Shown piece by piece: positions 2,725-61,803 of a stretch of DNA of 64,000 bases. Source of the DNA: Octopus vulgaris (Eukaryota); the NCBI GenBank assembly GCA_951406725.2, contig OX597820.1:101680001-101744000 (forward strand), given 5' to 3'. Numbering within the stretch: the first letter of the stretch is position 1; every line of letters begins with the position of its first letter. The position numbers were made by a program, and so were the translations under genes. The notes beneath the pieces were generated by a model, which searched no databases, was not told the origin of the DNA, and saw only the letters and a program-made list of their open reading frames with translations.

Positions 2725-2822
2725 GTGTACTGGCGAAAGCAACAGTTCAGTATGGCATGAGATAATGAAAGTTCTCAAAGGAAATAGTTACAATCGTTAT
2801 TTCAGACCTGAAAAAGAATCAG
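2725..2822 (+). CDS. Cys-loop ligand-gated anion channel-like subunit, exon A (N-terminal helix)
   Basis: caacag|...|gtaagt; reads CTGESNSSVWHEIMKVLKGNSYNRYFRPEKESG, containing the Y-x-x-x-x-RP motif; phase joins next exon. Confidence 0.85.
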
Positions 2823-3060
2823 GTAAGTGTATGAATATTTGTAAGTGTACCAGGGCAACTTCTTGAAGAGGCTCATTTTAAAAAAAAAAAACACGTATCT
2901 CACTCAAAATGTCTGTTCCGAGTTAAACTTTCGCTTAGGTTTACCTGGATGGTAGACTTAATCATTCACACAGTTTAACGCCACCAACTGGCATCTTGAA
3001 TACTTTTAGGGAAGTCCACTCCGTTTGAGGATACCTTTCTCTCTCTTCCTTCGGTTACTC

Positions 3061-3127
3061 TTGGATGAAGCTTTGTATATGGTCATGAGATAGGCAATCT
3101 CATGACCATATACAAAGCTTCATCCAA
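3061..3127. repeat. Perfect 31-bp-arm palindrome in intron
   Basis: TTGGATGAAGCTTTGTATATGGTCATGAGAT-aggca-ATCTCATGACCATATACAAAGCTTCATCCAA. Confidence 0.9.
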
Positions 3128-3402
3128 TTCTCGTGGCTAAAAGATTTTTAAAAATTAACATTTCCGATTTTGAGAAAACAGAGATATGTTCTATTCTTCA
3201 TTTCTCTTATCTCGATGAATTCCTCTGATAAAAAGGAAGTTTTGTGACTTACTTCTCCCAAGTGCTGATCCATATTTAGTGTTTCTCTTTGGATCGCAAC
3301 ACTAGCGTTGTTGACTTTTATATTATTAAATTAATAAAAACTATCACAATGTTTTCCATTCATTAAATGATTTCTTACACAGTCTATTTTGCTTTCTTGC
3401 AG

Positions 3403-3467
3403 GAAATATTACAGTTGTCTTTGTGAACGTGTATGTTGAAGCTGTTGGAATGATGGATTCCAGTAAG
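3403..3467 (+). CDS. Cys-loop channel exon B (beta1)
   Basis: ttcttgcag|...|gtataa; 65 bp; NITVVFVNVYVEAVGMMDSSK. Confidence 0.88.
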
Positions 3468-4260
3468 GTATAAAATTTATTAAATGTTTCTTGTTAACTA
3501 CTCACAAAAGCCCTGTATTTTAAGAAGAAAATGTGTAAAGAAACATGCAGAGTTAAGTCGTTGCAAGCGGATGTAACACACAAAAAAAAAAGCTTCAATT
3601 GAGGATTGAAACTGTACCGTCCTTGGTCATGACTCAATGATATTTCATTGTACAGCATGTGACAAATTTAAGTAGAATACTGAGTTGTTAGAGTAGAAGG
3701 GTAACAGATTTTACTAGCATACAAAAGTATTAGGACCAAGTAGAAACAAGCATAGTCGTGATACCGTTGGTAAGTGTCATCCTGAGTAAGACAGATGTTA
3801 CACGGGAGGAGTATTTCTTCTTGTGAGCAAATTCTAATCACAATACCGTCTGATTAGAATTTAGTAGACGGAAATTATGCGGAAGCCTACTTCCTATCTA
3901 TCTACCTCTATGATAAAAACATGCACAAATACGCGCGCGCATATGCATCAATACACACGCATACACACATATATATACATACATACACACACAACTAGTT
4001 TTGGGCGCTATAAAGCATTTAAAAACATCTGGTTACGTGAATTACTTTGACGTTTGAGTGCCTCATAACTTAACAGAAAAAAAAACTTAATAGAGCACAT
4101 TTCCATCGATGAGTCTCTGCTCAAAACAAAAATTACCCATTTTTGAAAATAATGATCACGTGTGATGAGAAATGGATTATTTACAACATAAAATGAGAAA
4201 GGTCCTGGGTAAAACGAGTTGAAACGCCTTCAATCTCTCCAGAAGCTGGTCTGTATCTGA

Positions 4261-4370
4261 TGAGATTGGAAGGGTATTGTGTATTAAGGACTATTTCCAC
4301 AAAAGCCGACGTTAATTTAACGCCTGCTTTTGTAGAAATAGTCCGTAATACACAATGCCCTTCCAATCTC
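4261..4370. repeat. Imperfect fold-back (~50-bp arms)
   Basis: TGAGATTGGAAGGGTATTGTGTATTAAGGACTATTTCCACAAAAGC vs GCTTTTGTAGAAATAGTCCGTAATACACAATGCCCTTCCAATCTCA. Confidence 0.85.
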
Positions 4371-4764
4371 AGAATTTCATTGTTCCCGATTAGGCTGATT
4401 AAAGGAGGCAATTGAAGAAAAACGTCCAGGCAATTGATGCAAAAAGTTCAGAATTGGCCAACCGAAAGGGTGCCGTCTTACAGACAACGCTAGACCGGAC
4501 GTTTCGAAGCAGTTTGGGTGGGATGTTCTACTCTACCCGCCGTACCTTTGGATTATCATTTATTACGATCACTGCAAAATTCTCTTTATGCGAAGAACTT
4601 CGATTCTTTAAAAGCATGTAAAAACCACTTAGACCAGTTCATGACCCAGAAAGATGCCAAGTTCTAGGAGGGTGGGATCATGAAGATGTCTCAAAGGTAG
4701 CGAAAGGTAGTGGAACAAAATGGGAAACATGTAGTTCAATAAAGGTATGTGATCGTATTCATTC

Positions 4765-4800
<36 letters not shown>

Positions 4801-4811
4801 AAACAATAACA

Positions 4812-4851
<40 letters not shown>

Positions 4852-5017
4852 AACATATACACACACACGCACACACATACACGCATACACATATATCGTT
4901 TCTAAGTATAAATTGAAATGGTTCTATGGTTTCCATTCCCCAAACTCCATTATCCCATTTCATGAAACATTTATTTATATTTCTCCTAGAATTCTATTTC
5001 TCTTTTCTCACCACTAG

Positions 5018-5235
5018 GAAATGCCGTTATTTCTTGTGGTCACAGAAACCTGGACAGATAAACAACTCGTTCCAAATGAGGGGTCCCAAGGTAATTTGCT
5101 TTTTGAAGAGAGATTGGTGCCTTTGTTCTGGACACCTAAATTGTTGCTGGGCAATGCCGGAACCCAACAAGATGTTAAGGTTTATTCAAAGAAGATTGTC
5201 CTTAAACCAAATGGTAAACTAACACTAAGTTATAG
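5018..5235 (+). CDS. Cys-loop channel exon C (loops D, A, E)
   Basis: ccactag|...|gtaaga; 218 bp; EMPLFLVVTETWTDKQL...LFWTPKLLLGN...IVLKPNGKLTLSY matches the WxDxRL / WxP / RIxxxG pattern. Confidence 0.92.
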
Positions 5236-7923
5236 GTAAGAATTGTCTTTATATTTCGTTTAAAATCCATTTGAATATATGGAAAGCTTACTTTCAAATC
5301 TAGATATACGCATCGGAATGACATTTGAGTAATTGTTTAAAACAACTATTTGAATATATCTGATTTTAATTGGAAGCCTAAGATTCGCCCACTGTCTCTA
5401 CGACGTTTATTCCAGTTTGACTGGAAAAAAATTTCACGTGTGTGAAGCCAGCAGTTTGCAGATTGTGTTTTAATGATTATCATGAAATCGACCAAATATG
5501 CTTTTATACCGGATTTGAAAGTAAGCTCCTCATATATCAAGGCGGCGAGCTGACAGAATCGTTAGCACGCCGGGGTAAAATACTAGTAAATTTCGATAAT
5601 TTCGCCCGCACGATTTTTACTAGGAAAAAATCGGATTTTTTGCGCGGTATCAAGTACCCTGTCCTCTTAATATGCCGCCAACCCCTTATTTTTGTTTGGA
5701 AAAACGTAGGGTTGGAAACCGGACCCCCTTCCTCTCCCTGAACCACTGGATTTTTTTTTCATTGAATGAATTACGGTGACCTAATATTCCACAAAAGCCT
5801 TTTGGGGTCCGAAAAACGGGGTGGGTGGGGTGGAACCCTCGGAAATTTCACCACCAACCTCCCAACATTTTACAGAAATACGTTTTCCAGAGTGTAGATT
5901 ACATTGTTCATTATTAAATACATAGAGAATTCTAACATTTATAGTGTGTATATTTTAAGCTGAAGATATTTTTTCTGAAGGCGTAGTGTATGCAAATATA
6001 TATACTGCTTCCTCCACTCTCGCCTCCAATACACCACATCTTGCCCACGCCACACACCACCACACCACACACCACCATGCCACACCACACCTTTCCGTAC
6101 ACACTAGCACTGACCACTTCCCAGCACCCACACCATCATCCACACACCTACACATGCACACACGTACACGTCAAGGTCACCAGCCCCCATCCACACCGCA
6201 CCTTCGCTTTGGGATCACCACTACTTTATTATTTCTCCTTCTTCCTAGCTCTCCTGTGTGACCCCTCTGTCTAGCATTCGCTATGATAGATCGCTAGCCA
6301 CTAAACCCTTTTTTAAAATTTTATCTCCCCGTTTGTTTCTGTGCTCCTTTCTGTCGAAGAGCGTAGGCTCGAAAAGTAAAAGACTTTCTCACTTCCCGAG
6401 CGTTAAACTAATACATCTGTTTGTTGTTTAGACACCCGTTTTCGTCTTTTGTTTTTTTTTGTAAATTCTCACTATATATATATATACATATACGCATATA
6501 TATAAGAGTGTGTATGTAGATGCAGACGAAGTAACTTATTTAATTACTTTTTGCTGTCAACTCGTTAGATTAATCCCAGTTTCACATCTTTCTTTGCAGG
6601 GTTTGTGTGTGTGTGTATGAGTGAGATCGTGTTTTCCTCTTGTCTTTACGTGTGTTCCCTGACTGTAAACAAAACAACACCCACACTATCAGTACAAGCG
6701 GTGTTGTATACTTGCAAGTCAGCTATGAAAGCATATTCGCGCTTCTTGATATATCCTGAAATGTTGAAAGGTTTTGTAAACAAAACCACTCATAACTACA
6801 TGCAGATTATTTGATATTCGATAGACTATGAGATTATAATCTTACTTGGAAACAGGTGAAGGTTGGTGACAGAAAGAGCATCCAACCATAGAAGATCTGC
6901 CTCAGCAAATTCTATCTGGTAATGCAAACGTGGAAAAGTGGACGTTAAAACGCTGATAATGATGATGATGATGATGATGATATTCTGTCTTCTATGAAAT
7001 TTAACCAGCTAACAACACACAAAACTGATATTTTATGAAGTGTCAAAAATGTTGTCTAAGCACTGAGAAACATCATATACCACATCATAGCCATGTCCTA
7101 AAATTTCGATGCCTCAAGAAATTAATTAAAAGTTAATTTATCAGTTTGTGTGTATTGTTAAATTGATAATTAACATTAATGAATATGTGTTAGTCACCTT
7201 TTTGTACAGCTAAAAAAATGGAAAGATATGAGAGAACTAATCACTCATTTTCAGTTCTTCATCTGTTTTAATGTATGGAATGTGACGACCCAAAGAAAAG
7301 AAACCACCTGAGTAACGTCGGAAAGTTCTTCTCATATTAGTTATTTATTTGAACAGATTGTGTGATTGAATGTAGATAAGAAAGAGAGAGAGAGAGGGGG
7401 GAAAGAAGGGTGAGCGAATGTCAGCATCCATAGCGTTGTCACAGTGCTAATAGGAGTTAGTTCCCGTTATGTGCACTCTTCATATCTGGCCCGTGCACAT
7501 TAGCTGAAAGAGCAATTTCTCCTCTGCTTGTTACTACCTGTTCATTTGTAGTTGGTGCCTGTCTTTATATGAAGAGTTGGCCCAATGAAAACTTGACTGA
7601 TTAGAAATCAACAGTTTTTGATTCATAAGTATTTTTGCTGACGTTAGTCAAACGAATCCCAATGAAACTGTTGGATGCCATCCGTTTGTTGTTTACTTTA
7701 TGACATCACCACTCAGTCTGAAAGATGTAGTTTTTGTTTACGAAAACTTTCTAACTCGAAACAAAACAACATGGGTTCAAACTGAGACAAACACTTGCTA
7801 CACTTCGAGTAGTTTTTCCATAACATAATTGCTGATCTTCCATAAAGTAATTTCAAAATTTCTTTTCTTATTTTCATGTATGCTTGTATTTTTATCGTTA
7901 TATATTTTCCCCTGATATTTCAG

Positions 7924-8006
7924 AGTAATTTTTCCTGTTTCATGCCAAAAACATATCAACTTATTTCCCCTGGATGGACAAATTTGTAGCATCAAGATAA
8001 AAAGCT
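7924..8006 (+). CDS. Cys-loop channel exon D (Cys-loop, loop B)
   Basis: atttcag|...|gtaagt; 83 bp; (R)VIFPVSCQKHINLFPLDGQICSIKIKS = C-x13-C with FPxDxQxC; absent from the ORF track. Confidence 0.95.
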
Positions 8007-8056
8007 GTAAGTATGAAAAATGGTGTGAATGATATATATATATATATATATACATG

Positions 8057-8096
<40 letters not shown>

Positions 8097-8153
8097 CATA
8101 CATACATACATACATACATACATACATACATACATACTTATACACACATACAC

Positions 8154-8215
<62 letters not shown>

Positions 8216-8392
8216 GTATATATAATATATTCATATATATATATATACATATGCATACATATATATAGATATAGATATATGAATATATTATATATACATA
8301 TATATATATGTACATCTAATACAGGATAAAATTTTTCGAAACAATTCTATCAATGGCCAGCATATTAAAAAAATACCTTTAAAGGTTAAATT

Positions 8393-8662
8393 TATAAACA
8401 ACTTATAAACAAGGGCAAAAGAAAAAATTTCTAATGCCAAATATGGCGAAAATAGACACTTCGACAATAGAGAAGGTTCTTATGAATTAACTCTGAAATC
8501 GGGTCCGATATGGTAATAACGGAATTTTTTAGAAATTTCTTTCGGCTTTCTTCGAGACGCGTACTTATAGTGATGAATTATATGGTTATTGACGAAGTGT
8601 CTATTTTCGGCATATTTGGGATTAGATATATTTTCCTTTGCCCTTGTTTATAAGTTGTTTAT
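8393..8662. repeat. Inverted repeat, ~75-bp arms (TE-derived)
   Basis: TATAAACAACTTATAAACAAGGGCAAA...ATAGACACTTCGACAATA and its reverse complement at ~8587-8662. Confidence 0.8.
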
Positions 8663-8932
8663 ATATATATATATATATATATATACGATGAATAGCCTTC
8701 GCGTAAACCACCGGTTCGTTTTGTTCTCTTACTTTATTATCATCTTATAATCATCTCATAATAATGACCTTTATGACTCGTATTACTACCTCAGTCAATC
8801 TAAAGGTATATATTTGTCACTACCTGTCATAAATAGCCTTTTTCTATTTGCAATATGCATTTTCATTGATTTTTCATATTTTACACTTACATTTCCACGT
8901 GTATTTTATATTTTCTTTTCGTAACATATTTC

Positions 8933-8969
<37 letters not shown>

Positions 8970-9502
8970 AATTTAGAAACTCAAACAGATATATGGTAAA
9001 TCGTTTTTAGCGGTTGAACGCGAAAGTTAACAATGCTAGAAATAACAGCATGTAGAATATGGAAAAACCGTCGAGAGGCCTTTGCCTTTTCTTTTTTTAA
9101 CCCAATTCTCTCCATGCTATTGTTTATAGAGTTATCGACTCTTAGTGTCAACGTAACGCAATGGGTGTGTGTGTGCGTGTGTTTATGTGTGTGCGCGCGT
9201 ACGGTGTGTACTCACTTTTATTCTATTATTCCTTTACATGCTTCAGCAATTCGCCCGTGGCCATTCTGAAGCACTACCTTTGAGCGTTTAGTCAATCAAA
9301 CTGGCCCCAGTACTTACTTTACGTTTGATATTTATTCTCTCAATCTGTTTATGTTTAACTACTAAATTATAAGGACATAACCAAACCAACTCTGGCTGTC
9401 AATAACTGAAAGACATACATACACACGTAGATAAATACTCCTTGCATGTATACATATATACATACATACACTCATGCATGCATACATACATACATACATA
9501 CA

Positions 9503-9535
<33 letters not shown>

Positions 9536-9595
9536 TCTTTTATTCGTTTCTGCTATGCGGCTGTGGTCATGCTGGAGCACCACCATGAGTGTGAG

Positions 9596-9702
9596 ATGCT
9601 TACAGCACCTAGGTTTCCCAAGTGGTCAACCATCTAATTACTCACTAAGCTCGATGTTGCTTAACTTCTGAGATCGGACATGAACCGATGCCTTCAACGT
9701 GA

Positions 9703-9706
<4 letters not shown>
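9596..9706 (-). pseudogene. 5S rRNA pseudogene / 5S-derived fragment
   Basis: Minus strand reads CACGTTGAAGGCATCGGTTCATGTCCGATCTCAGAAGTTAAGCAACATCGAGC...GATGGTTGACCACTTGGGAAACCTAGGTGCTGTAAGCAT, a degenerate metazoan 5S. Confidence 0.85.
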
Positions 9707-9780
<74 letters not shown>

Positions 9781-9785
<5 letters not shown>

Positions 9786-9911
9786 ATTAGAGCTTAGTAA
9801 AATAAATTACTTTGCCACATACTGAACTTTCTAGAAATAGCAGCCAAAAAGTTTTTTAGCCATTTCCACTACTGTGGCAAAGTAATTTATTTTACTAAGC
9901 CCTAATTATAT
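9781..9911. repeat. Inverted repeat (~38-bp arms) between (TA)n tracts
   Basis: ATATAATTAGAGCTTAGTAAAATAAATTACTTTGCCACA vs TGTGGCAAAGTAATTTATTTTACTAAGCCCTAATTATAT. Confidence 0.8.
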
Positions 9912-10008
9912 AATGTAATATTTTGAATATGCCTTAAATGGTCCTTTTACATACTGAACACTACTTGGTGAAATTGATTAATAACTAATTAATTTTACCC
10001 TCAATTAT

Positions 10009-10074
<66 letters not shown>

Positions 10075-10077
<3 letters not shown>

Positions 10078-10274
10078 GGAGTTCAATATAATCGGTGGAC
10101 CCACGCAGTTGTCGAGTGGTACCCACGCGAGCGGAAAAGACCACCCGGAAGACCTCCACGACGGTGGAGTTACGATTTCAGGAGGACGTGGATGAGAAAG
10201 ACGCGATCCAGAGAGGAGTGGACAGCGTGCTGTGACCATCGGTGTCAAATGGACGCCTGGCGGACTGGTCGGTC

Positions 10275-10279
<5 letters not shown>
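10075..10279 (+). mobile_element. RTE-type LINE 3' fragment
   Basis: Translates NRWTHAVVEWYPRERKRPPGRPPRRWS...W, the typical RTE ORF C-terminus; flanked by (TA)n. Confidence 0.7.
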
Positions 10280-10310
<31 letters not shown>

Positions 10311-10352
10311 TATATTAAATTAGAGATAAAACCACTATTAGGCAAATCAAAC

Positions 10353-10409
<57 letters not shown>

Positions 10410-10752
10410 TGTACGTGTGTGTGTGTGTGTGTGTGCGCGCGCGTTGGAAAGTTAAATGCTATGACCATTGATTTCGCACCTATAAAGCGTTGAGTTGTAG
10501 AGAGGTTATGCGCCTTCGACCATTTGAGTAATGGGATGCCTATACTGTTGAGCGTTTTAAAGGTGTGAAACCAACGATCATTCAATGACTGGCCATAACC
10601 TTTAACTCCCTAAAAAATATATTACTGCACTAATGCTTTAGAGTGTGCTTCTTTTTCAGCTATATAAACTACTGACGATATGTGGGTGTGTGTGCATGCG
10701 TGTGTATGTATGTATGTATGTATGTATGTATGTATGTATGTATGTATGTATG

Positions 10753-10783
<31 letters not shown>

Positions 10784-11166
10784 GGTTCAAAATATAATGA
10801 AAATACAAAGAGAATGTTAAAGAACAACAAGCGGGGTGTATTAGGTTGATGCTCATGAAAAATGGAAGAAATCCTTAACGTTTCGAGCCTATGCTCTTCT
10901 ACGGAAAGAATAGATGAAGAGAGAAAAAAATGTAGTTTCCATCTTCCAAGAAATAGAGAGGATCTGTTTGGCCGACCTTTGACACATAATATTACATCAA
11001 ATTGAGGGAAACTGCAGTTGTGTTCTATGTTTTGATAATGTGACAAAATAGCTTTTGGTACCAACCATCAACATGAAAATTATAGCTTAATTTTCTTACA
11101 TGAAATTTTAAAAATGAATGGCATTCTGATTGTAAGCCATATTTCTCCTTATTCTTGTGTTTCCAG

Positions 11167-11304
11167 TTTATTATCCTGTTGAAGAAGTACAAGTTAAATG
11201 GGAATCAAACACAGACTGGCAGAAATCTTTGGATAAACTGGAAATATTTAATTTTGATTTGGCGAAAATTAAACTAACGGAAGAAAATACCACTCAGTTT
11301 GGAC
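11167..11304 (+). CDS. Cys-loop channel exon E (beta8-beta9, start of loop C)
   Basis: tttccag|...|gtacgt; 138 bp; (F)YYPVEEVQVKWESNTDWQKSLDKLEIFNFDLAKIKLTEENTTQFG. Confidence 0.92.
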
Positions 11305-11661
11305 GTACGTTTTTCTTTCTTTTATTTTTCGATTTTAAAATTGCTGAGGTGACTTTGTAGAATGTGGGTTATAAGTTGTGATACCTAGGTGGTGTGGTAA
11401 GCTTGTAGTAAACTATGTTTGTAAGACAGGTTTATTTCATGTTTCTTGCTATTTGACTTAATTCACTAACGGCAGTGGGAAACATATGGACACTACAATC
11501 CCAATTTCCATTCCCCCAATCTTGTACTAAATATGACGGATCAGCAGTTGAGAAATCCTTCTATTTATGAAAAAAGCTACATAAGTTATCTATGACCATG
11601 TCATCAAATCTCTTTTTTTTTATAATACATACATACATACATACATACATACATACATACA

Positions 11662-11689
<28 letters not shown>

Positions 11690-11693
<4 letters not shown>

Positions 11694-12640
11694 ATAAGGT
11701 TGGCTTATAGCCTATGATTATCGTATTACTTCCTAGATAGATAAATAATTACCCCGTATTTATCTAGGTTATATCATAGCTGATTGAAGTGGATTCAGTA
11801 ATAAAAGAAAGTGAGTAGAGTGGGTGAGGGTTGAAAGAATATAAGAGAATTTCTACTATTGGTGGTAACAAAAGAGTTTTGTCGTCAAATAAAAGATAGT
11901 CTAGATGGGATGTGTACACACACACACAAAAGCAAACAAACAAGATACTACTCCGGCAATATATGTATATATAGCAAAGAAGGATAGTCTGTGAAACCAT
12001 AAATATGCAACAGATAAAGTTGAATAAAGTCACTTTCATTAGTTGAATAAATCAGCAGTTAACTGAATGAGATTAATTTTATTATCGTTTGTATTTAGTA
12101 TAATTAATTAAGACAATGGTTAAATCTTTCCCGTCTGTCCTCGACAAGAAGAATCATTACAGCTGATATCTAAAAGAAAGTGTACTTATGACAAAGGTTA
12201 CAGAAGATCGCAAAGCAAATGAAGTAGTATTAGAAAAATAGTTTTGTACAAGGCGCAAATCATTTGTTACTGCTTTTGTTTCTTCTTGTATATATATATA
12301 GTTTAGTTCCTAGGTCAGCCCTATGAAAAGCATTCCAACTATAACCAACATGTCTTGTCATGAGTTTGTAAAGTAAGGTAAAGTTACCTTCTCGGGTCAT
12401 CATACTCATAAGGGCCGGTTTCCAGGTTTCATGGCGTATATATTCCGCACCTGAACAGGACGCGGGTCCGTCGCAGGATTACTCATTTTTGCCAGCTGAG
12501 TGGAATGGAGCAACATGAAATGAAGTGCTTTGCTCAAGAACGGTCCAGGAATCGGAACCACAATCTTACGATCATGAGTCCAACACCCTAACCATTAAGC
12601 CACGCGCCTCCACTGTCATGAGTTTTGGAGGCTCTAGGAC

Positions 12641-12672
<32 letters not shown>

Positions 12673-12686
12673 CATACATACATACA

Positions 12687-12718
<32 letters not shown>

Positions 12719-13068
12719 ATAAGGTTGGCTTATAGCCTATGATTATCGTATTACTTCCTAGATAGATAAATAATTACCCCGTATTTATCTAGGTTATATC
12801 ATAGCTGATTGAAGTGGATTCAGTAATAAAAGAAAGTGAGTAGAGTGGGTGAGGGTTGAAAGAATATAAGAGAATTTCTACTATTGATGGTAACAAAATA
12901 GTTTTGTCGTCAAATAAAAGATAGTCTAGATGGGATGTGTACACACACACACACAAAAGCAAACAAACAAGATACTACTCCGGCAATATACGTATATATA
13001 GCAACGAAGGATAGTCTGTGAAACCATAAATATGCAACAGATAAAGTTGAATAAATCAGCAGTTAACT
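11690..13068. repeat. Direct duplication of ~370 bp (11690-12063 and 12716-13068)
   Basis: Both copies follow (CATA)n and start ATAATAAGGTTGGCTTATAGCC; near identical, second lacks ~23 bp. Confidence 0.85.
12368..12613 (-). mobile_element. tRNA-derived SINE with TSD
   Basis: Minus-strand head GGAGGCGCGTGGCTTAATGGTTAGG; 12-bp TSD TGTCATGAGTTT at 12356 and 12614. Confidence 0.8.
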
Positions 13069-13599
13069 TAAATCCTTACCTATTTTGAGAAAGATGATTA
13101 AGATTTGATGGAAATTTAACTGCTAATTCTAGAAGGTCAAGTAATCTTAAACAGATGTTCCCTTGTTAGATAGTATGAGGGTTGTTAAGGATGCAAGTGA
13201 AAGACACGAAGATGGGCCTAGTACACATCTACTTAGTTCCGAAAAACTAGAATCACTGTCGCAGATGTATAAGCAGAGGAATTCAGTGCATTGGATTTTT
13301 GTATCTGCTACTTGCTTCACTCAATGGACTGCAGCCAAGCTGGGACTCCACCTTAAAGAGTGTTCTAGAATAAATCGATTCAAGTAATTATTTTTTAAAG
13401 TCTGGTACTTATTTATCTTTCACTTTTGCCAGACCGCTTAGTTACGGGAAGGTAAGCGAGTCAGCACCGATTGTCGAGATATGGCATGGGGAGAAGCACA
13501 AATACAAACACACACACAAAGAAACAATAGAAAGTAAAAGAAATATTAAGTTACAGAGGATGGATAGTCTTATGGATAGGTGCTCCAATATCTGTGAAT

Positions 13600-14070
13600 A
13601 AATTTTGTCTCATGTGTGCAAGGACTGAAATTCCCCGTTTTAGCATTGAAGTATAATCCCGCATTCCTTGAGATCTTCAGGATTGTACTCTTTCTCAGCA
13701 ATCTTCTCGGTGATATAATATACTATTTCATTCTCCTTTAACTATCACGTATAATTTGCAAGCTTTATGATGTTACATTTATCAATGTCTCTGCACGAGG
13801 CGATACGGCCGCTGAATCTTGGCTCCAAGGATTGCTCTGCGAGACCTCCATATAATAGTGTGTTAGTATCTGTCAATATGCTCTCAGCCTTGTAAATGCA
13901 GGCCTCAATATAACAAGCTTTATTCAGTGGGGCTCGCTCCATGATCTCTACATAAATAACTATCTTCAGATGATGTATTTAATTAGAGTGAAAGGGTCTT
14001 CTTCGTGCTAAGGGTGCAGTTATAACCAATTTTAACTGTATGTTATTAAGCCATTTCCGGTAAGGGATTT
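13600..14070 (-). mobile_element. Penelope-like element fragment (GIY-YIG region, degenerate)
   Basis: Frameshifted remnants PYRK..HTVKIGYNC and APLNKACYIEACIYKAE..LLYGGLAEQSLEPRF resemble the TVKVSYSC / CPL..C...IYxA...YIG motifs of PLEs. Confidence 0.65.
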
Positions 14071-15239
14071 TGATTGTAAAATGCTTTTGTGTATTTATGA
14101 GTGGGTGTGTGCGTGCCTGCATGTGTGCGTGCCTGCGTGTGTGTGTGTTTTTGTCATTGTGTGTGTGTGTTGGTGTGTGTGTGTTTGTGTGTGTGCGTGT
14201 TTGTGTATGTGTGTGTGTGTGTGTGTGTGCGTGCGTGTGTATGCATCTCATATCAGGTCACTTTTAGTGCTACTGGCAACATGCAACACAGTACAAACTG
14301 TTCATGGCCACGCTGACGATGACTAAACTGGCAACCCGAAATGCATCTTGGTAACAAGGATGATTTTCGTTGGACAACCTGCATTTTGAAACACAAAACC
14401 AACCTATCAAAGGACGGATGAATAGAGTAGAGCTAACAATCACCCAACAGCTGAAGAGACTCTTAGTCTTTATGTAGATATATCCCTCTTGGAGAAGGAA
14501 ATTTCGAAATAACATCCGCCTCATTTGCAAAGCCACAAACCTGTTAGAGATTTTAAGTTGCAGCATGGACATACGATGACAACCATCATCTTTAACATTT
14601 ACGATACGACAATTTACCAGTGATGGTCATACTCTTGATGAGTTGAAAGCTACCATGTATGCATGCATGTATGTATGCGTACGTACGTATGTATGTATGT
14701 ATGTATGTACGTATGTATGTATCTATGTATGTATGTATGTATGTATGTATGTATGTATGTATGTATGTATGTATGTATGTATGTACGTATGTACGTATGC
14801 ATGTATGTATGTATGTATTTATGTATGTATGTATGTATGTATGTGTATGTATGTATATATGTATGTATGAATGAATGAATATAAGTACGTACGTACGTAT
14901 GTATGTATGTATGTATGTATGTATGTATGTATGTATGTATGTATGTATGTATGTATGCATGAATGTATGTAAGTATGTATGTGGATGTATGGATGGATGG
15001 ATGAATGGATGGATGGATGGATGCATGCATGCATGCATGCATGGATGGATGGATGCATGCATGCATGGATGGATGGTCGCTAACAAAGCGACAAGACTTT
15101 TCGAGTAAAGAGATTTCCTGGTGTTTGTAAACATGTGGTTGAGTTTGTGGGTTGGTTGAACAATTGATGCACACACTCAGGTGTGGGCATCAATTCACGA
15201 AAAGAATCTCAGACAAAGAATATTTGGAATGTCTTACAA

Positions 15240-15560
15240 ATCGTCACTGAGTCACTAATAGTTTGGATTCGTAGAATCTGCATCAGTTTCTATTGCTCTT
15301 TCTTTGAAAAACCTAATATTTCTAGGGCTTGGTGTAACTCTGTAGGCACATAATCTAGTGCACATATGATGATGACTACAAATGAGAACGTATATTCAGG
15401 GTACAAGAGCTGTAAGTTCCGCATTAATTCGTCATAAATGCATTCTTTTTCCTGGAGTTTTTTTTTTGTACACTCACATCTGCTGGGCAGCTTACCTCTA
15501 CATTGCATGACTTATGTTCCTTGTCCCACGAAAAAAAATTAGATCTGGTCTGTCTGTTTG
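15240..15560 (-). mobile_element. RLE-clade non-LTR retrotransposon fragment (endonuclease C-terminus)
   Basis: EKECIYDELMRNLQLLYPEYTFSFVVIIICALDYVP resembles the K...Y..L...PIIIGALG motif of R2/R4/NeSL-like elements. Confidence 0.65.
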
Positions 15561-15670
15561 CCTGTACGTACGTATGGATGTATGTGTATGTATGCTTCTA
15601 TGTATAAATATATGTATGCATGCATGTATCTATATCTATCTTCACACACATACACACACACTTACATATG

Positions 15671-15718
<48 letters not shown>

Positions 15719-15743
15719 TTAATCAATATAAGGGTAGCATTAT

Positions 15744-15798
<55 letters not shown>

Positions 15799-16005
15799 AG
15801 ATGTACTTGCATAGCAAGTGATTTGATCTGAGATCGTGTGATGAAACGAAAACAATTGCAGCGTGCTACGGATTTTTGTCAGTGAACAGGTCGCGGTCTT
15901 AAAGCGACGAAAATATTTTGACAAATTAAACTTAAATGTTGGAGTGAATCGAACGGCTTTTGTGTGTTTCTTAAATGACTTACAAACATCTTCCACGCTG
16001 CAATT

Positions 16006-16055
<50 letters not shown>

Positions 16056-16252
16056 TTGAAATTTACTGAAGAACAAAAGAAGACAGGTGTATAAACAACA
16101 AGCGGGTGTTTTAGTTTGACGCTCGGAAAGGAGAGAAAGTCTTTTAAGTTTCGCGCCTACGCTCTTCAACAGAAAGGAACACAGAGAAATAAACGGAGAC
16201 AGAAATTATATATATACACACATATGCATGCACACAAGCCCGTGCACGCATG

Positions 16253-16308
<56 letters not shown>

Positions 16309-16310
16309 TG

Positions 16311-16381
<71 letters not shown>

Positions 16382-16615
16382 GTTTTTACTGACGGAATTC
16401 ACCTCTCTGTCTATATACCTACCATCTTTGTAATGTTGGCAAATGGAATAAGTATAAAAATGAACATTGTCAATTTAATTTTTTTTAAATTCCATATGTG
16501 GCTGAAGATTGCTCTACATTTTAAAAGTGATGTAATACTTACATTGTTTAATTAAATGAAGTAGCATGAAACGATTGTACTACACTACCTTTGGATATCC
16601 TTGTTGGTTATTTTA

Positions 16616-16707
<92 letters not shown>

Positions 16708-16724
16708 CTAATGTCCTTTTTCAG

Positions 16725-17089
16725 AGAACTGGTCCCAGATTGAAGCCTCTTTGCATTTACAAAGGAAATTCAGTTTACAAATCTTGGCAATCTATTTTAC
16801 CAGCACTATCTTAGTGGTTGTTGGCGGTTTGTCATTTTGGATTGACACTGAAAGCACTGCAGCCCGTATGTCCCTCGGTTTGATCACCTTACTCACTCTT
16901 ATAACTCATAACTCCAGCCTACATCCAGCAAAACACTATTTTGCAACAGGAATGCTTGGAATTGATATATGGCTTATTATATGTCTCATCTTCGTCTTCT
17001 CAGCCTTAATCGAATTCATTTTACTTAACCATTCAAGAACTTCCAATGCAAAATTAAAAACTACTAACAACCAAACATCACACGATTCA
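16725..17089 (+). CDS. Cys-loop channel exon F (loop C end, M1-M3)
   Basis: Branch point TACTAAT, tttttcag|...|gtaagt; NWSQIEASLHLQRKFSLQILAIYFTSTILVVVGGLSFWIDTESTAARMSLGLITLLTLIT...IDIWLIICLIFVFSALIEF. Confidence 0.96.
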
Positions 17090-17124
17090 GTAAGTAAAAA
17101 TTTGAATCTAAATTTTGATTTGTA

Positions 17125-17345
17125 ACTCTTTAGCATTTAAACCGGGTATATCTGATCCAAACTATTCTATCTGTTTTATGTTAAAATTGGTCAGATCAGG
17201 ACCCTCATAACTGCTCTGCAAAGTTATTCTAAGAAGTAGTCTCGTTATCAGAATTTCGAAGCTACAAGATAATGCATGATTAATTCAAAACAACGTGAAT
17301 AAATGAGCATTACATTTGGCAGAGTAATCTGAATGCTAAAGAGTA
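17125..17345. mobile_element. piggyBac-type MITE (degenerate)
   Basis: Ends CTCTTTAGCATT.../...AATGCTAAAGAG; same family as 56112-56320 and ~58560-58780. Confidence 0.65.
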
Positions 17346-18044
17346 GTTCTATCCATCCAACCATCCATTTTATCTGCTTACTATTCCTGGGAAAGTTATG
17401 GGAGTATCTCTTCCATGTCGTCCTATCAGAAACAGCCATCATTACACGCATTCTTTGTGCTTTTTAATTAAGAAATAAAAATCACAAAAATAATTTTGTA
17501 TTAAATATATAAAAATTGGAGTGATACGGTTTCATGTTCTAGTTTGATTTGTTCTGTTTGTTGAAAATGAGTTTCATATTACAAGGATCAGCGAATGGAG
17601 AGGCAGATGTATTGATAGAAAGGACGAGTGATCTAAGGAAACTGTCAGTCCTGAGAGAAATATATACTACCATGTGATTATAGTGGAAAGAGAATACGGT
17701 AGAAGTGAGGGGGATGGGAAGAGGAAGGGGAATACAATGATGATGATGATGATGACTATCAATTAATTTGGAGTCACTAAAAGGGAAACGTATATTTTGA
17801 TACTGAATTTTATTGTCTGTCAAAAAGAGACAAGGAAAACAATCACGTATCCAATAAATGTGGTGGACAAAATCCAATCAAGGGCTATTAATTTGGTTGT
17901 CTCTAAACTCAACAACAAATCACAATCTAAATGTTGTACCTTCGCCTTCTAGAAAACATTTCAATGTCTAAACCAATACCTAGGATATTTTTATAAATTT
18001 TTAATTCGTTTTTATTGCTGTTGTTGTTATTATTATTATTCCAG

Positions 18045-18266
18045 TTGCCAATGAGTGAACATGCAAACACGAGTTACAAAGAAGATAGCTTTTCAAACAG
18101 AATGGTTACAGAAAGAGATGTTGATGAATACAAAATAACTGCTGCTGCTGCTGACAATAAAAACGTTGGTAAAAAAATTAACAAAGCTGATCAATACTGC
18201 AAAATTATCTTCCCTGTAGCTTTCATATTTAGTAATATTATCTACTGGATGTGGCATTTCTACTAA
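18045..18266 (+). CDS. Cys-loop channel terminal exon G (intracellular loop end, M4, stop)
   Basis: attccag| in phase 0; ...KINKADQYCKIIFPVAFIFSNIIYWMWHFY* matches the D..xxxxFP..F..xN..YW M4 consensus. Confidence 0.95.
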   Translation: MPMSEHANTSYKEDSFSNRMVTERDVDEYKITAAAADNKNVGKKINKADQYCKIIFPVAFIFSNIIYWMWHFY

Positions 18267-18379
18267 CCACTATTAGCGCTCTCTCTCTCTCTCTGAAATA
18301 TTCATATTTAAGACATTTATTATATAACTTTTAAAATATTTTTTTATTAAGCATGGCCACTGCTCGTGAGCTGAAACTA

Positions 18380-18390
18380 AATAAAATAAA
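18380..18390 (+). terminator. Candidate polyadenylation signals of the Cys-loop gene
   Basis: Overlapping AATAAA hexamers ~115 nt after the stop, followed by T-rich sequence. Confidence 0.5.
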
Positions 18391-18656
18391 TGACTACATC
18401 AATATTTTTATTTATTCTGTACTGAGTGCTATTTCATTCATGTAGAGAAAGTCATGAACATCATACTGTCACTTTAAAACATGTGATTTTGTGCCTAGCT
18501 AAAAGGAAACAACACACACACACACACACACATACATACATGAATATAATTTATAGCAAATTATATACATGAAGCAAATGTTCGGAAAGTAAATTATGAA
18601 AACAGGTTTCAATTCATGGTTGAAACCGATTCACTTCTTTTAATATTCTAAGAAGT

Positions 18657-18993
18657 GATGGTAACAGAACTAACGAAGCTGATCGTTACTGCAGACTTAT
18701 TGACCCTCTAGCTTTCGTATTTACCAACAGAGCCGGCTTTAAGCCAATCAGGCAGAATCAAATTGGGCCCCGCGCACACGGTCGAGCGAAGGATGCTATG
18801 AGGACATTTTGTATATCATTGTGGCTAACAGTCGAGCTTCAAGCCCTCAACACTTTTTGGCCGAAACTGACATTCTACACGAAGCATAAAACACCAATCT
18901 TCAGCTTTTGTAGAGTAGAGGGCCCCACTGACAATTCTTTAATTTGTCCCTGCTCTGCTTATCAATATCATGTATTGGATGTGGCATTTCTAA
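18657..18993 (+). pseudogene. Duplicated M4-coding segment split by a MITE
   Basis: GNRTNEADRYCRLIDPLAFVFTN [insertion] IMYWMWHF* vs GKKINKADQYCKIIFPVAFIFSNIIYWMWHFY* in the intact exon. Confidence 0.85.
18728..18957. mobile_element. hAT-like MITE
   Basis: Termini CAGAGCCGG.../...CCTGCTCTG; imperfect 8-bp TSD TTTACCAA / CTTATCAA. Confidence 0.7.
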
Positions 18994-20741
18994 AAATCAC
19001 TATCGTCTCCTGTAAATATGCAGTCTGGTTTTATAAAAAAAAAATCCGATTTGGTGATGTGCAATAAGATGTAGGAACATTTACTAACTCTTTGAAAGAC
19101 ATAATGCTCACAGCATATTCTACCCACTGAATATCTGATTAACTACAGCGAAAATTCCATTTTCATGACTAACAGTAATAGACTTGATTTTAAGGACAAC
19201 AGGGGAGAGAACTCACATTTTTCATGCCTTTCTCAAAGTAAGTGACCGTATGTGTCTTATAAGTATCTACTGACTTTGTATTTTAATTTTCAAAATTGTC
19301 AAGAATTAAAGAATCAAATGAAATAATCATCAACTTAATAAACGACAACAGTTTACCTCTTGAAATATTATAATATCTGTCGTGTCATACTGAAATCTTC
19401 AGTCCAAGATTTGTAGTAATATTTCATTTTTAACATTGCAATACAAGCAGTTTTAGGCAAGTTACTGTTCAAAGGGTCGACCTCAAGCAAGCCCCATGAT
19501 GACAAGCATACCAGCCGTGACCATCCCGCTCGTTCTTTTTTCAGACTTATCTAAATCTACATTGTCCAATATCTTTACTAATTTTAAGAAAGTTGGGTGT
19601 CATTTGGATGTTATTTCCAGCAGGTCAAGTAGCTATGCTGAGATTCTCCCTCATTGTAAATTTGTAATAAATAAAAATCTTTAAAATGTCTTCTTCTATC
19701 AGGTAAAAGAATATTTCGTCAAACTGTTGTAAATTAAACGCATTCATAATTCCATGTCGGTAAGTAAAAGTTCATAAGATAAGAGGCTTTGACAATAAAC
19801 ATTAGAGCCACACGGTAATAATTCAAGGGAGATAACTCTAAAGTATAATGCAGTTTTCACACATAGCAACAATCCAGCCGCTATACACTGCTTATAAAGT
19901 GTCAAAATGAGAAAATAAATTATTTTTTTTAATATTCTTTTCTAAATAAGGAATTGAACTACTACTGAAGTTCATTTTTTTTTTATTAGTAATAAATTAA
20001 GAATGAATTTCATTCACCGGAGTCTGCAAATCTGATGGAGTAGCTTTATTTTACATCCACTGTCATTGGCTACAAGACACCTATGGGTCATTCACTGAAT
20101 TTCTGATGATTAGAATAGCAAGGGAGTGCTCTGTAACTCGATGCAGAGCAAATATGTCGAGGACTTTTTAAGTTATTGTTTTTTGTTTTTTTTTGCTTTT
20201 TTTTTTTTGTGGTGAGGATGGTCCAATTTTCTTTACATAAACATAGTTTCTGTTTTGACATTTTCACTCACAAGGCCTCGGTCAACCCAAAGCAATGGAT
20301 GAATTCATTTGTCCAACATGTCTTGCAGTGGGAACTATGTGATTGTTTAGTAAACTTCTTAACTACAGAACCATAACTATAAAATAAAAACAAAACAACA
20401 GTTCTTTACAGTTCAGCTGTGATTTACACCTATTTTATGTATTCACTTCTATGTGGATAGAACCATAATGCTGTGAGAGCAATGTTCTATCAACGATAAA
20501 TAACAACTTAGAAAGATTCTACTGACTTAGTTCATATTGTAAGAGTGTCTTTCCTGCCTGTCACTAAAGTCTTATGCTAAAAGAGTCATAAATGCAAGAA
20601 TTGCTGTGTAATTAAAAAGTTCACTTCCCAAATATATAGTTCCAGTTTCAATCCCACAATGTGACCCCTTGGGCAAGTATTAACTACTATTAGCCCAAGG
20701 CCAACCAAAGCCTTGTGAGCAGATTTGGAATAGGGAAACTG

Positions 20742-31202: not shown

Positions 31203-33245
31203 CACTTGCCTCAACAGGTCTTCACAAGTGTCATTTGATTTGATTAGATTAGCACTTGCCTCAACAGGTCTTCACAAGTGTCATTTGATTTGATTAGCAC
31301 TTGCCTCAACAGGTCTTCACAAGTGTCATAAGAAGGAAGGTATGCACAGGTGGACTGACTACGTCCCAGGAAGGGGCCACGGGCTATGGCCTGACTAGTC
31401 TTGCCGGGTCTTCGGACAGGTGCCAGATGAGGCTGGCGAACGGCCACGACCGGATGGCGTTTGTTATGTGCCCACAGCACGGAGGCCAGTCGATGCGGTA
31501 CTGGCTACAGCCACGTTCGGATGGTTTTCTTGTGTGCCACCGGCACTGGTACCACTGAGATACAGATTCCATTGATGTTCATCTATTTTGATTTGTTTTG
31601 ATTTTTTTGATTTGTTGATTTGTTGATTTGTTGATTTGTTGATTTGTTGATTTTCACTTGCCTCAACAGGTCTTCACAAGTGTCACAAGAAGGAAGGTAT
31701 GCACAGGTGGACTCCCAGGTAGGGGCCACCACGATCGGATGGTGTTTGTTATGTGCCCACATCACAGAGGCCAGTCGATGCGGTACTGGCTACGGCCACG
31801 TTCGGATGGTTTTCTTGTGTGCCACCGGCACTGGTACCACAAAGATACAAATTCCATTGATGTTCATCTATTTTGATTTGTTTTGATTTTTTTGATTTGT
31901 TGTTCATTTGTTGATTTTCACTTGCCTCAACAGGTCTTCACAAGTGTCATAAGAAGGAAGGTATGCACAGGTGGACTCCCAGGTAGGGGCCACCACGATC
32001 GGATGGTGTTTGTTGTGCCCACAGCACGGAGGCCAGTCGATGCGGTACTGGCTACGGCCACGTTCGGATGGTTTTCTTGTGTGCCACCGGTACTGGTACC
32101 ACAAAGATACAAATTCCATTGATGTTCATCTATTTTGATTTGGTTTGATTTGATTTTCACTTGCCTCAACAGGTCTTCATAAGTGTCACACACTTGCCTC
32201 TGCCTCAACAGGTCTTCACAAAGTGTCACACACTTGCCTCTGCCTCAACAGGTCTTCACAAGTGTCACACACTTGCCTCAACAGGTCTTCACAAGTGTCA
32301 TAAGAGGGAAGGTATGCACAGGTGGATTGACTACGTCGCCGGGTCTTCGGATGGTGTTTTTATGTGCCACCGACACAGGTGCCAGATGAGGCTGGCGAAC
32401 GGCCACGATCGGATGGTGTTTGTTGTGCCCACAGCACGGAGGCCAGTCGATGCGGTACTGGCTACGGCCACGTTCGGGTGGTTTTCTTGTGTGCCACCGG
32501 CACTGGTACCACAAAGAATACAATTCCATTGATGTTCATCTATTTTGATTTGTTTTGATTTGATTTTCACTTGCCTCAACAGGTCTTCATAAGTGTCACA
32601 AGAATGAAGGTATGCACAGGTGGACTGACTACGTCCCAGGTAGGGGCCACGGGTTATGGCTTGACTAGTCTTGCCGGGTCTTCTCACGCACAGCATACTT
32701 CCATAGGTCTCGGTCTCTAGACATTTCCTTAGTGAGACCTAAAGTTCGAAGGTCGTGCTTCACCACCTCGTCCCAGGTTTTCCTGGGTCTACCTCTTCCA
32801 CAGGTTCCCTCAACTGCTAGGGTGTAGCACTTTTGCACACAACTATCTTCAGCCTTTCTCGTCACATGACCATACCAGCGCAGCCGTCTCTCTTGCACAC
32901 CACAACTGACGCTTCTTAGGTTCAACTTTTCTCTCAAGGAACTTACACTCTGACGATTATGAACACTGACATTACACATCCATCGGAGCATACTGGCTTC
33001 ATTTCTTGCGAGCTTACGCATATCCTCAGCAGTCACGGCCCATGTTTCACTACCATGTAGCATGGCTGTACGTACACATGCATCATACAGTCTGCCTTTT
33101 ACTCTGAGCGAGAGGCCTTTTGTCACCAGCAGGGGTAAGAGCTCTCTAAACTTTGCCCAGGCTATTCTTACTCTAGCAGTTACACTTTCAGCACACCCAC
33201 CCCCGCTACTGACTTGGTCTCCTAGGTAGCGGAAGCTATCAACTA
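30265..33245 (-). mobile_element. 5'-truncated RTE-clade LINE with tandemly amplified 3' UTR
   Basis: ORF 32665-33126 (LYDACVRTAMLHGSETW...RWYGHV...GRGRPRKTW) is the RTE RT C-terminus; 30265-32660 is repeated 3' UTR modules ending in (CAT)n. Confidence 0.88.
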
Positions 33246-33882
33246 AAATTAATATAAAGACAAACTTTACAGCAAAGGTAGAACTATATCTTCACCGTTA
33301 AATAAGTGTTGTAATAGATATATCAAAACAAACTTTGTTCAAACAAAACATTCTATAATTGCTATGTATAAACTTTATACTTATTTTTGCCTCAGTAAAT
33401 AATAAAAAGTTTTCATTTAATATTTTTAATTATTTACTTTTTTAAATTCAATATTACATTTCTCAATAGGTCAGCAAACTTTTGGAATCATTAGCATGCT
33501 GAGCAAAATGCTTAGTGGCATTTCATCTGTCTTTTCATTCTGAGTTCACATTCCAGAGGTTGACTTTGCCTTTCATCTTTTTGGGGTCAATAAAATTGGT
33601 ACCAATTGAGCACTGGGGTTGATGTAATCAACTTACCCCATCACTAAAATTGCTTTTTATCATTATATTTATATTTTGTCTGTCTATGCAATAGGATTAA
33701 ATTTTAATGTAATCAAAACTTCGGAGGGATTTTATAAAATATTACAGAAATAATATGCATATTACACAGCAATCACCACATTGTGAGAGAGAATACAGTA
33801 GTCATCATTAAAAAGCAGTTACTTTCAAGCTTGCTTTTAAATGTTCTTTATAAATTTAAAGTTTTTGATTAATAATACTTAC

Positions 33883-60088: not shown

Positions 60089-60565
60089 TATAACAACTTA
60101 TAATAACGCATTCTAACAACACTGCCAGCTTGCCACCTTTATATATTAGAAATATCATACTCAATGAATGAACACGAACAGTAAATAGATTTATGACAAA
60201 ATTGATTAAATTATCCTTATCAGGAAAAATTTTGAAAATTGGACTGCCGGCCAACTCTCCATCCTTTATAACAATATCCATGAAAGTTAGTCTAACTTTC
60301 ACTCTCCTTTCTAACACATAAAGTTAGAAATTAGTGGTGCAAGTTAATAAAACATCTTGAAATTATGTTGTTGTTGCTGCTGTTGCTGTTGCTGTTGAGC
60401 AAACGGTCTTCATCCCAGAGCTCGCAAGATGGGAGAAGTCCGAAATGTGGTCCTTTGCTATTCGTAAGACCCGCAGAAGAGAAAGCAGGTCAATCTCCGA
60501 CACTGAGAGCATCGACAGGTGGATGAATGTGCATCCAGGCTCAGCGGTTGCGTAGGAAGTCGGGA

Positions 60566-61803
60566 GCAATAAACTCTGAAAATGCGCAGAGAACAACTTC
60601 TGCCACATTCCAGGAAGGAAAACTAGAATTAGTTGACAGCTTCCGTTACCTAGGTGACCAAGTCAGTAGCGGGGGAGGGTGCGCTGAAAGTGTAGCTGCT
60701 AGAATAAGAATAACCTGGGCAAAGTTCAGAGAGCTGTTACCTCTGCTAGTGACAAAGGGCCTCTCGCTCAGAGTAAAAGGCAGACTGTATGATGCATGTG
60801 TACGAACAGCCATGCTACATGGCAGTGAAACATGGGCTGTGACTGCTGAGAACATGAGTAAGCTCACAAGGAATGAAGCCAGTATGATCCAATGGATGTG
60901 TAATGTCAGTGTTCATACTCGACTGAGTGTAAGTACCTTGGGAGAAATGTTGGACCTAAGAAGCATCAGATGTGGGGTGCAAGAGAGACAACTACACTGG
61001 TATGGTCATGTGGCAAGAATGGACGAGGATAGCTGTGTGAAAAAGTGCCACACCCCAGCAGTTGAGGGAACCTGTGGAAAAGGTAGACCCAGGAAGACCT
61101 GGGATGAAGTGGTGAAGCACAACCTTCGAACTTTAGGCCTCACCAAGGAAATGACTAGTGACCGAGACTTTTGGAAATACACTCTGCGTGAAAAGACCTG
61201 GCAAGCCAAATGAGACCATAAGCTCATGGCCTATGCCAGGGGCGTAACCAGCCCACTTATGCATACCTTTTCCTTAGCAGGGTGCAAAGAGCACCATATG
61301 AGTGTGATCGTTGATAGAGTGGCTAACCGGCTTCTGTGCCAATGGCACATAAAAGGCACCATTCGAGCGTGATCATTACCAGCGTCACCTTACTGGCACT
61401 CGAGTCCCATGCTAGTAGTGTGCTAAGAGCACCATCCGAGCATGATCGTTGCCAGAACAGCTATCTGATTTCTGTGCTGGTGGCATGTAAAAGACACCAT
61501 TTGAGTGTGATCGTTACCAGCATCACCTTACTGGCACCTGTGCCGGTGGCATATGCAAAAGATTTGAGTGAGGTCGTTGCCAGTACCGCCTGACTGGCCC
61601 TGTGCCGGTGGCACGTAAAAGCACCCACTACACTCTCGGAGTGGCTGGCGTTAGGAATGGCATCCAGCTGTAGAAACTCTGCCAGATCAAGATTGAAGCC
61701 TGGTGCAGCCATCTGGTTCACCAGCCCTCAGTCAAATCGTCCAACCCATGCTAGCATGGAAAGTGGACGTTAAACGATGACGATGATGATGATGATGATG
61801 ATG
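60566..61803 (+). mobile_element. 5'-truncated RTE-clade LINE (RT C-terminus + 3' UTR)
   Basis: LELVDSFRYLGD...LYDACVRTAMLHGSETW...WYGHVARM...GRPRKTW; 3' UTR ending in (GAT)n. Confidence 0.9.

Follow-up and report, generated by a model that had tools for sequence, protein, structure and literature searches.

Loop D Arg, loop C Thr, the aromatic box and loop B Glu have established roles in agonist binding by Cys-loop receptors of the anion branch, which comprises the γ-aminobutyric acid (GABA) type A (GABA-A) receptors, the glycine receptors (GlyR) and the glutamate-gated chloride channels (GluCl) (PMC4006026, PMC4338433). In GluCl, the AAA motif consists of loop D Arg, loop E Ser, loop C Thr and three aromatic residues (PMC4338433). 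Among anion-selective ligand-gated ion channels of the pentameric type (pLGICs), SsCl provides a precedent for function without a transmitter (PMC13065796), and Drosophila channels provide precedents for non-neuronal function (PMC4938653). For cephalopods, a screen of 41 Octopus vulgaris channels with 18 ligands names only responders of the nicotinic branch in the text consulted (bioRxiv 2025.04.02.646353); PMC13174522 covers the nicotinic acetylcholine receptor (nAChR) branch only, and bioRxiv 2025.06.15.659772 describes two uncharacterized cephalopod-specific anion-branch groups in venom glands. Here, we analyzed a 64,000-nucleotide stretch of the O. vulgaris genome assembly G000 (the window; G000:C7:101680001-101744000), which contains most of a gene for an anion-branch subunit with a heavily altered binding pocket. 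The subunit is a real, unusual, single-copy orphan that already exists as an automatic model. Invertebrates commonly have orphan subunits of the anion branch; from its sequence, this one appears to stand out by its evolutionary rate and by three lysines. We tentatively propose, at a probability of roughly 40%, that it makes up a chloride channel that is non-synaptic and shows a degree of basal opening; pH or small non-amine anions would tune this channel, and GABA, glycine or glutamate would not. We favor this reading because the pore is conserved and three conserved lysines surround the subunit interface.

The pocket was compared across 161 rows (125 of 148 new representatives, 29 of 120 listed sequences and 7 spliced paralogues), which do not form a random sample; representatives shorter than 330 aa or longer than 640 aa and tandem-duplicated models had been dropped. 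Residues are numbered as in GlyR, with mammalian GlyR alpha1 (P0088) as the reference. Against this reference the orphan subunit carries F63V, R65T, D97K, E157K, Y202Q, T204G and F207W and has lost C198/C209, so that the alignment bears out the substitutions in loops D, A, B and C and the missing second disulfide that a preliminary description of the locus had read by eye. Loop D Thr96 (window positions 5042..5044, forward strand, as are all features of the gene) occupies the place of Arg65. The three lysines are Lys128 of loop A at the Asp97 position (5138..5140; WxPD becomes WTPK), Lys146 of loop E at the Leu117 position (5192..5194) and Lys186 of loop B at the Glu157 position (8000-8002). 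All three recur in the cuttlefish orthologue, which also shares P230T, Y202Q, T204G, the absence of the loop C disulfide, the replacement of F63 (Val or Ile) and that of R65 (Thr in octopus, Ser in cuttlefish). A basic residue at position 97 occurs in none of the 161 rows and Lys at 117 in one; Lys at 157 occurs in nine, all belonging to three coleoid paralogue genes, which are the likely source of E157K.

Some of the pocket is retained. Loop B Phe159 and a Phe one position from Y202 persist in both octopus and cuttlefish, and an N-glycosylation sequon stands immediately before loop C in octopus, argonaut and cuttlefish. At positions F99, S129 and F207 the two pockets differ: octopus keeps S129, whereas cuttlefish has Tyr at 99. 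The loop C Trp at 207, which the preliminary description had singled out, is present in octopus but is Val in cuttlefish. That description had also called the pocket rewritten, and most of the known amino acid-binding determinants are indeed lost on both faces; the point it made of the loop D Arg is weakened, as Arg65 is present in only 101 of the rows and missing in the other 60, and its loss by itself therefore says little. A frequent alternative among molluscan relatives is an Arg at 129; the orphan subunit lacks it, and its position 119 is Val or Ile. The glycine-receptor residue set (F63, R65, F99, S129, E157, F159, Y202, T204, F207 and the loop C disulfide) is broken, the intron within M2, loop B Glu and loop C Thr of GABA-A subunits are absent, with M1-M3 encoded by a single exon, and neither the AAA motif nor the accompanying loop G or loop A Arg of GluCl is found. 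Since the published determinants are replaced (PMC4006026, PMC4338433), GABA, glycine and glutamate appear unlikely to bind in the conventional way.

The pore and the fold are better preserved. Both Pfam domains, ligand-binding and membrane, score above their cut-offs, and the protein has a C-x13-C loop and four helices, as expected of a Cys-loop pLGIC. An AlphaFold monomer built from a 128-row alignment (mean predicted local distance difference test score, pLDDT, 85; predicted template modeling score, pTM, 0.74) is predicted to adopt a complete Cys-loop subunit fold. All fold matches listed for this model are GABA-A, GlyR or GluCl chains, as are 60 of the 60 PDB sequence matches listed; ESM Atlas matches were only generic GlyR/GABA-like clusters. 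M2 reads Ala-Ala-Arg at -2' to 0', with 6' Ile, 9' Leu and 13' Thr and no -1' Glu, and its pattern (AAR at -2' to 0', 9' Leu, 13' Thr) matches a GABA-A beta-type row and the paralogue at C13:80.07; anion selectivity is therefore likely, as judged from these residues. The earlier placement in the GABA-A/GlyR/GluCl branch is thus upheld by the 83- and 138-bp exons, the A-R pair at -1'/0' and the nearest sequences and structures alike. The coupling region is much altered. It combines a deletion in loop 2, M140K in the Cys-loop (found in 0 of the 125 representatives), P230T in M1 (a non-Pro residue occurs here in 1 of the 161 rows) and an insertion in the M2-M3 linker.

A splice reconstruction of the window recovered the seven exons described previously (98, 65, 218, 83, 138, 365 and 222 bp). 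They have AG acceptors in 7 of 7 cases and GT at all 6 internal donors, and they join in frame into 395 codons and a terminal TAA with no internal stop; every motif quoted in the preliminary description was found. A genome search with the full protein placed exon 1, which encodes the signal peptide in 98 coding bp, approximately 12 kb upstream of the next exon and outside the window (G000:C7:101668056-101668153). Its GTAAGT donor matches exon 2 in phase, giving a protein of 428 aa from 8 exons. Exon 2 (2725..2822) encodes the N-terminal helix, and exon 3 (3403..3467) encodes beta1/loop G and a beta1-beta2 loop one residue shorter than in aligned relatives. Exon 4 (5018..5235) carries loops D, A and E, exon 5 (7924..8006) the Cys-loop C167-C181 and the loop B lysine, and exon 6 (11167..11304) loop F, beta9 and the start of loop C with its N-x-T/S sequon. 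The end of loop C, M1, M2, the lengthened M2-M3 linker and M3 lie on exon 7 (16725..17089), and a short M3-M4 loop, M4 and the TAA stop on exon 8 (18045..18266).

Contigs of four sequencing runs (X1, X2, X5 and X17) were aligned to window positions 16708-19100. In X2 and X5, which come from two studies, one contig spans 16725-17089 and resumes at 18049, that is, joined across the intron; the four-letter gap at this joint falls within a stretch that the aligner skipped as a repeat. The X2 contig extends another 560 letters upstream, and the X1 contig matches exactly from splice site to splice site. The X17 contig runs continuously through the introns, as expected for DNA. The runs carry coded labels, none of those containing the gene is recorded as RNA, and the RNA label of X1, X2 and X5 is a guess by the tool, but the splice joints themselves show that the gene is transcribed. 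Four runs under one shared label contain almost none of the gene's sequence words and count as no evidence. Compared with the window, X17 carries 3 differences in 587 coding bases and 33 in 1419 non-coding bases (Fisher p=0.005). Relative to P0001, 4 amino acid changes were seen where approximately 22 would be expected at the non-coding rate, a rough dN/neutral ratio of 0.18, which presumes that X17 and P0001 are similarly distant; two variants are common to both. Between these close relatives, the coding sequence is under purifying selection.

Apart from the eight exons of the gene itself, two genome searches found nothing at high identity, and the best membrane exon after these reached 45%; the gene is single-copy in G000, and a paralogue cluster was ruled out in this way. 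The closest record is RefSeq XP_036360849.1 of Octopus sinensis (391/395 residues identical), an automatic, uncharacterized model named "glycine receptor subunit beta-type 4-like". The searches traced orthologues to three Octopus species (O. sinensis, O. bimaculoides and O. vulgaris), to Argonauta and to a cuttlefish cluster that includes full-length open reading frames (ORFs) on 2-kb contigs. Partial models include XP_014768139.1 (O. bimaculoides), GAB1608574.1 (Argonauta hians) and CAE1241720.1/CAE1241723.1 (Sepia pharaonis), which likewise bear only automatic names; in P0006, the O. vulgaris model, the 365-bp membrane exon is missing. The two S. pharaonis models are near-identical wherever aligned, N-termini excepted, and look like isoforms of one gene. 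Models P0154 and P0155 of this species show a short, out-of-frame-looking M2 stretch that is absent from the Logan-derived cuttlefish proteins and is probably an assembly error. After the cephalopod sequences, other full-length matches among 1.84 billion representatives fall to approximately 23-33% identity. No non-cephalopod orthologue was found in the sequence searches, which covered these representatives and from which distant or unrepresented orthologues may escape, and no clear squid or nautilus sequence was found in the same searches. In the paper library searched, no paper names any of four accessions of the gene or uses the RefSeq name together with "octopus", and no other paper on the gene came up.

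Between octopus and cuttlefish, the orphan subunit is identical at 73 of 169 extracellular residues (43%), 55 of 84 in M1-M3 and 17 of 20 in M2. Five comparisons for four paralogues gave 76-91% extracellular identity, 98-100% in M1-M3 and 20/20 in M2. The orphan subunit thus appears to evolve much faster than its paralogues, a contrast that is approximate, with only one paralogue partner being a named cuttlefish.

G000 contains at least 13 anion-branch genes. M1-M3 lie on one exon in the orphan gene and seven others, whereas all four GABA-type genes have an intron within M2. An eighth gene, on C5, shares the single exon but with a frameshift: at L016 (about 54630900), the M1-M3 exon shifts frame after M2, and the orthologues of O. 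bimaculoides, Argonauta and Sepia are intact there, so an assembly indel is likely. The coleoid GluCl-like genes with loop B Lys lie at G000:C13:80.07-80.12 Mb (L003-L007), C13:79.45 Mb (L008-L009) and C5:54.61 Mb (L015-L016). These three genes evolve slowly and show the same replacements, Lys for Glu in loop B, Thr for Arg in loop D and Arg for Ser in loop E, together with two Glu in loop C. Their sequences suggest a conserved non-canonical pocket and a good target for deorphanization; no functional report on them was found in the literature. Possibly they are the "PSG unknown" groups of bioRxiv 2025.06.15.659772, and one of the venom-gland groups described there may contain the orphan gene. 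The orphan gene shares with them loop B Lys, the loop D pattern Ile/Val-x-Thr (Thr/Ser in the orphan pair) and the single M1-M3 exon, and C13:80.07 also has its -2' Ala pore entry. Its identity is highest to the C13:80.07 group in both the extracellular and the membrane parts, by 1-3 points only. In contrast to the orphan subunit, the group keeps Asp97, Pro230 and the loop C disulfide and has an Arg at 129. As a side observation, C13:39.46-80.12 Mb (L003-L009, L013-L014 and L017-L030) holds five GluCl-like genes, with two pairs within about 0.15 and 0.6 Mb, and the loop D Arg is missing in 4 of 4 with a recovered loop D exon.

With GlyR alpha, GABA-A beta and GluCl, the orphan subunit shares the fold, the Cys-loop, the 83- and 138-bp exons, A-R at -1'/0' and 9' Leu, at 22-24% identity in structural alignments; it differs in having most agonist-binding determinants replaced and in having lost the M1 proline and the canonical M2-M3 linker. 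The arthropod channels SsCl, pHCl, secCl and Alka resemble it, as proposed here, in being divergent anion-branch pLGICs without a classical agonist; we draw a functional analogy only and do not claim orthology. The pH sensing of SsCl uses non-conserved His/Glu residues (PMC13065796), and pH sensing in the orphan subunit is therefore not predictable from sequence. The chemotactile receptors are likewise pLGICs of the cephalopod lineage with altered pockets and fast evolution, but they belong to the nAChR branch and are intronless and clustered on C15, whereas the orphan gene belongs to the anion branch, has eight exons and is single-copy. The suggestion that it represents a counterpart of the chemotactile receptor radiation is not supported: the gene is single-copy and has introns, whereas two receptor-like ORFs examined from the C15 cluster are intronless.

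We provide a putative mechanism for the proposed non-synaptic channel. With Lys in place of the loop B Glu, the amine of an agonist would be repelled, and amines are therefore disfavored as agonists. Loss of loop D Arg, loop E Ser (in cuttlefish), loop C Thr and loop A Phe (in octopus) would remove the carboxylate and aromatic contacts. Lys97 without Arg119 would remove a restraint on the closed state, as in the D97R mutant of GlyR, and the channel would then work like the pH-sensitive or non-neuronal chloride channels of arthropods, though it does not belong among them. The D97R mutant of human GlyR is labeled "overactive" in a paper that also cites a constitutively open mutant (Beckstead 2002) (PMC3008964). 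If the subunit is transmitter-independent or senses anions, it would mark a second repurposing of Cys-loop receptors by cephalopods, this one starting from the inhibitory branch, and nature would have made its own version of the position-97 charge reversal known to over-activate glycine receptors. The system is directly testable, as it involves a single gene with two distant orthologues, and the lysines that could be reverted are three in number and named.

Several points weigh against this proposal. The restraint argument presupposes that in GlyR D97 pairs with R119 and thereby holds the channel shut. Arg119 is also absent from many ordinary relatives, 42 of the 161 rows having a D/H pair at 97/119. 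Residue positions come from an alignment and one predicted monomer and do not describe pocket geometry, and the altered coupling region could equally mean that the subunit does not gate alone. Aplysia GluClAc1, which lacks the loop D Arg, nevertheless responded after long transfection (PMC4178172), a caveat on the argument from lost binding residues. Phylogeny gives no firm footing either. The stem leading to the octopus/cuttlefish pair measures several substitutions per site, and no tree places the pair: three maximum-likelihood trees do not recover the proposed coleoid sister group, among them a FastTree run that joined the pair to an unrelated long branch, and the more careful trees leave it unplaced, a further one setting it next to ecdysozoan GluCl-like rows with 31% bootstrap. 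Approximately unbiased (AU) tests reject none of three placements, namely with the coleoid group (p=0.19), with C13:80.07 alone (p=0.15) or with GABA receptors (p=0.075). Since no tree places the pair and no placement is rejected, we can only infer, from the shared loop B Lys, loop D Thr and exon structure and from the marginally highest identities, that the orphan gene arose by duplication from this coleoid GluCl-like group and then evolved fast. A bolder version, in which a coleoid invention from the inhibitory branch, parallel to the chemotactile receptors, would form a homopentameric chloride channel with its amine pocket converted to a lysine-lined anion site and would detect pH or non-amine anions peripherally, in skin, sucker or gland, appears rather unlikely on present sequence grounds.

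The main rival holds that the protein is a modulatory or structural subunit that does not gate alone and co-assembles with GluCl-like paralogues (e.g. C13:80.07, C13:79.45 or C5:54.61), altering pore, kinetics or pharmacology. We regard this as possible, if still doubtful. It accords with a single copy, with a conserved M2 beside an eroded pocket and coupling region, with the slight excess of identity to the C13:80.07 group, and with the several octopus Cys-loop subunits that gave no homomeric current in bioRxiv 2025.04.02.646353. However, the rare lysines lie on both the principal and the complementary face and are shared by octopus and cuttlefish although only 43% of extracellular residues are identical, which suggests that a new interface has been selected and speaks against decay. 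Decay itself, that is, a duplicate degenerating under relaxed selection, is largely refuted and very improbable: the long branch, the many changed sites that are conserved family-wide and the degenerate partial exon copy downstream would suit it, but it is contradicted by the proteins of octopus and cuttlefish, which are full-length and free of stops, by the spliced contigs and by the low dN/neutral ratio.

Two further explanations assign the subunit a definite ligand. As a peripheral chemosensor, it would be a chloride channel gated by an environmental or secreted non-amine anion (a carboxylate, sulfonate or phosphate), functionally parallel to the chemotactile receptors. We consider this unlikely; its restriction to coleoids in the searches run, the very long stem branch, the fast-evolving extracellular domain and a cationic pocket that keeps the loop B Phe speak for it, whereas the genome searches revealed no expansion or cluster and the octopus and cuttlefish pockets diverge at F99, S129 and F207. 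Less probable still is that a classical transmitter, with glutamate the most plausible, continues to gate the channel at a rearranged site, Lys146 and Lys186 standing in for the lost arginines. GluClAc1 offers a precedent, arginines moved between loops during GluCl evolution (PMC4338433), in related molluscan subunits the missing loop D Arg goes together with an Arg in loop E, and the loop D Arg is absent from amine-gated anion channels as well (PMC4006026). In contrast, the orphan subunit has no loop G Arg, no Arg at 129 and no loop C Thr, GluCls appear to need a small uncharged residue where it has Lys, and a Lys in place of the loop B Glu disfavors amines.

Some minor features of the window and of the genome were also recorded. 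At 18651..18990 on the forward strand, just downstream of the stop and outside the ORF, the end of the last exon (M4 region) recurs as a degenerate and interrupted copy; it is split by approximately 220 bases and is probably a relic of local duplication. In the intron between the 138- and 365-bp exons, a direct duplication of roughly 400 bases per copy occupies about 11640-12030 and 12650-13060. Elsewhere in the genome, G000:C15:56.9-57.4 Mb (L052 and L053) contains a cluster of intronless Cys-loop ORFs of approximately 400 aa, consistent with the chemotactile receptor cluster, and L042 (G000:C25:41333348-41334292) is an intronless, divergent nAChR-like Cys-loop ORF outside it, with an open frame of 575 aa. 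Transposon remnants, labeled by eye from a six-frame translation as piggyBac-like transposase and long interspersed nuclear element (LINE) reverse transcriptase-like fragments, lie at window positions 41024-43146, 32668-33291, 60527-61210 and 10012-10320.

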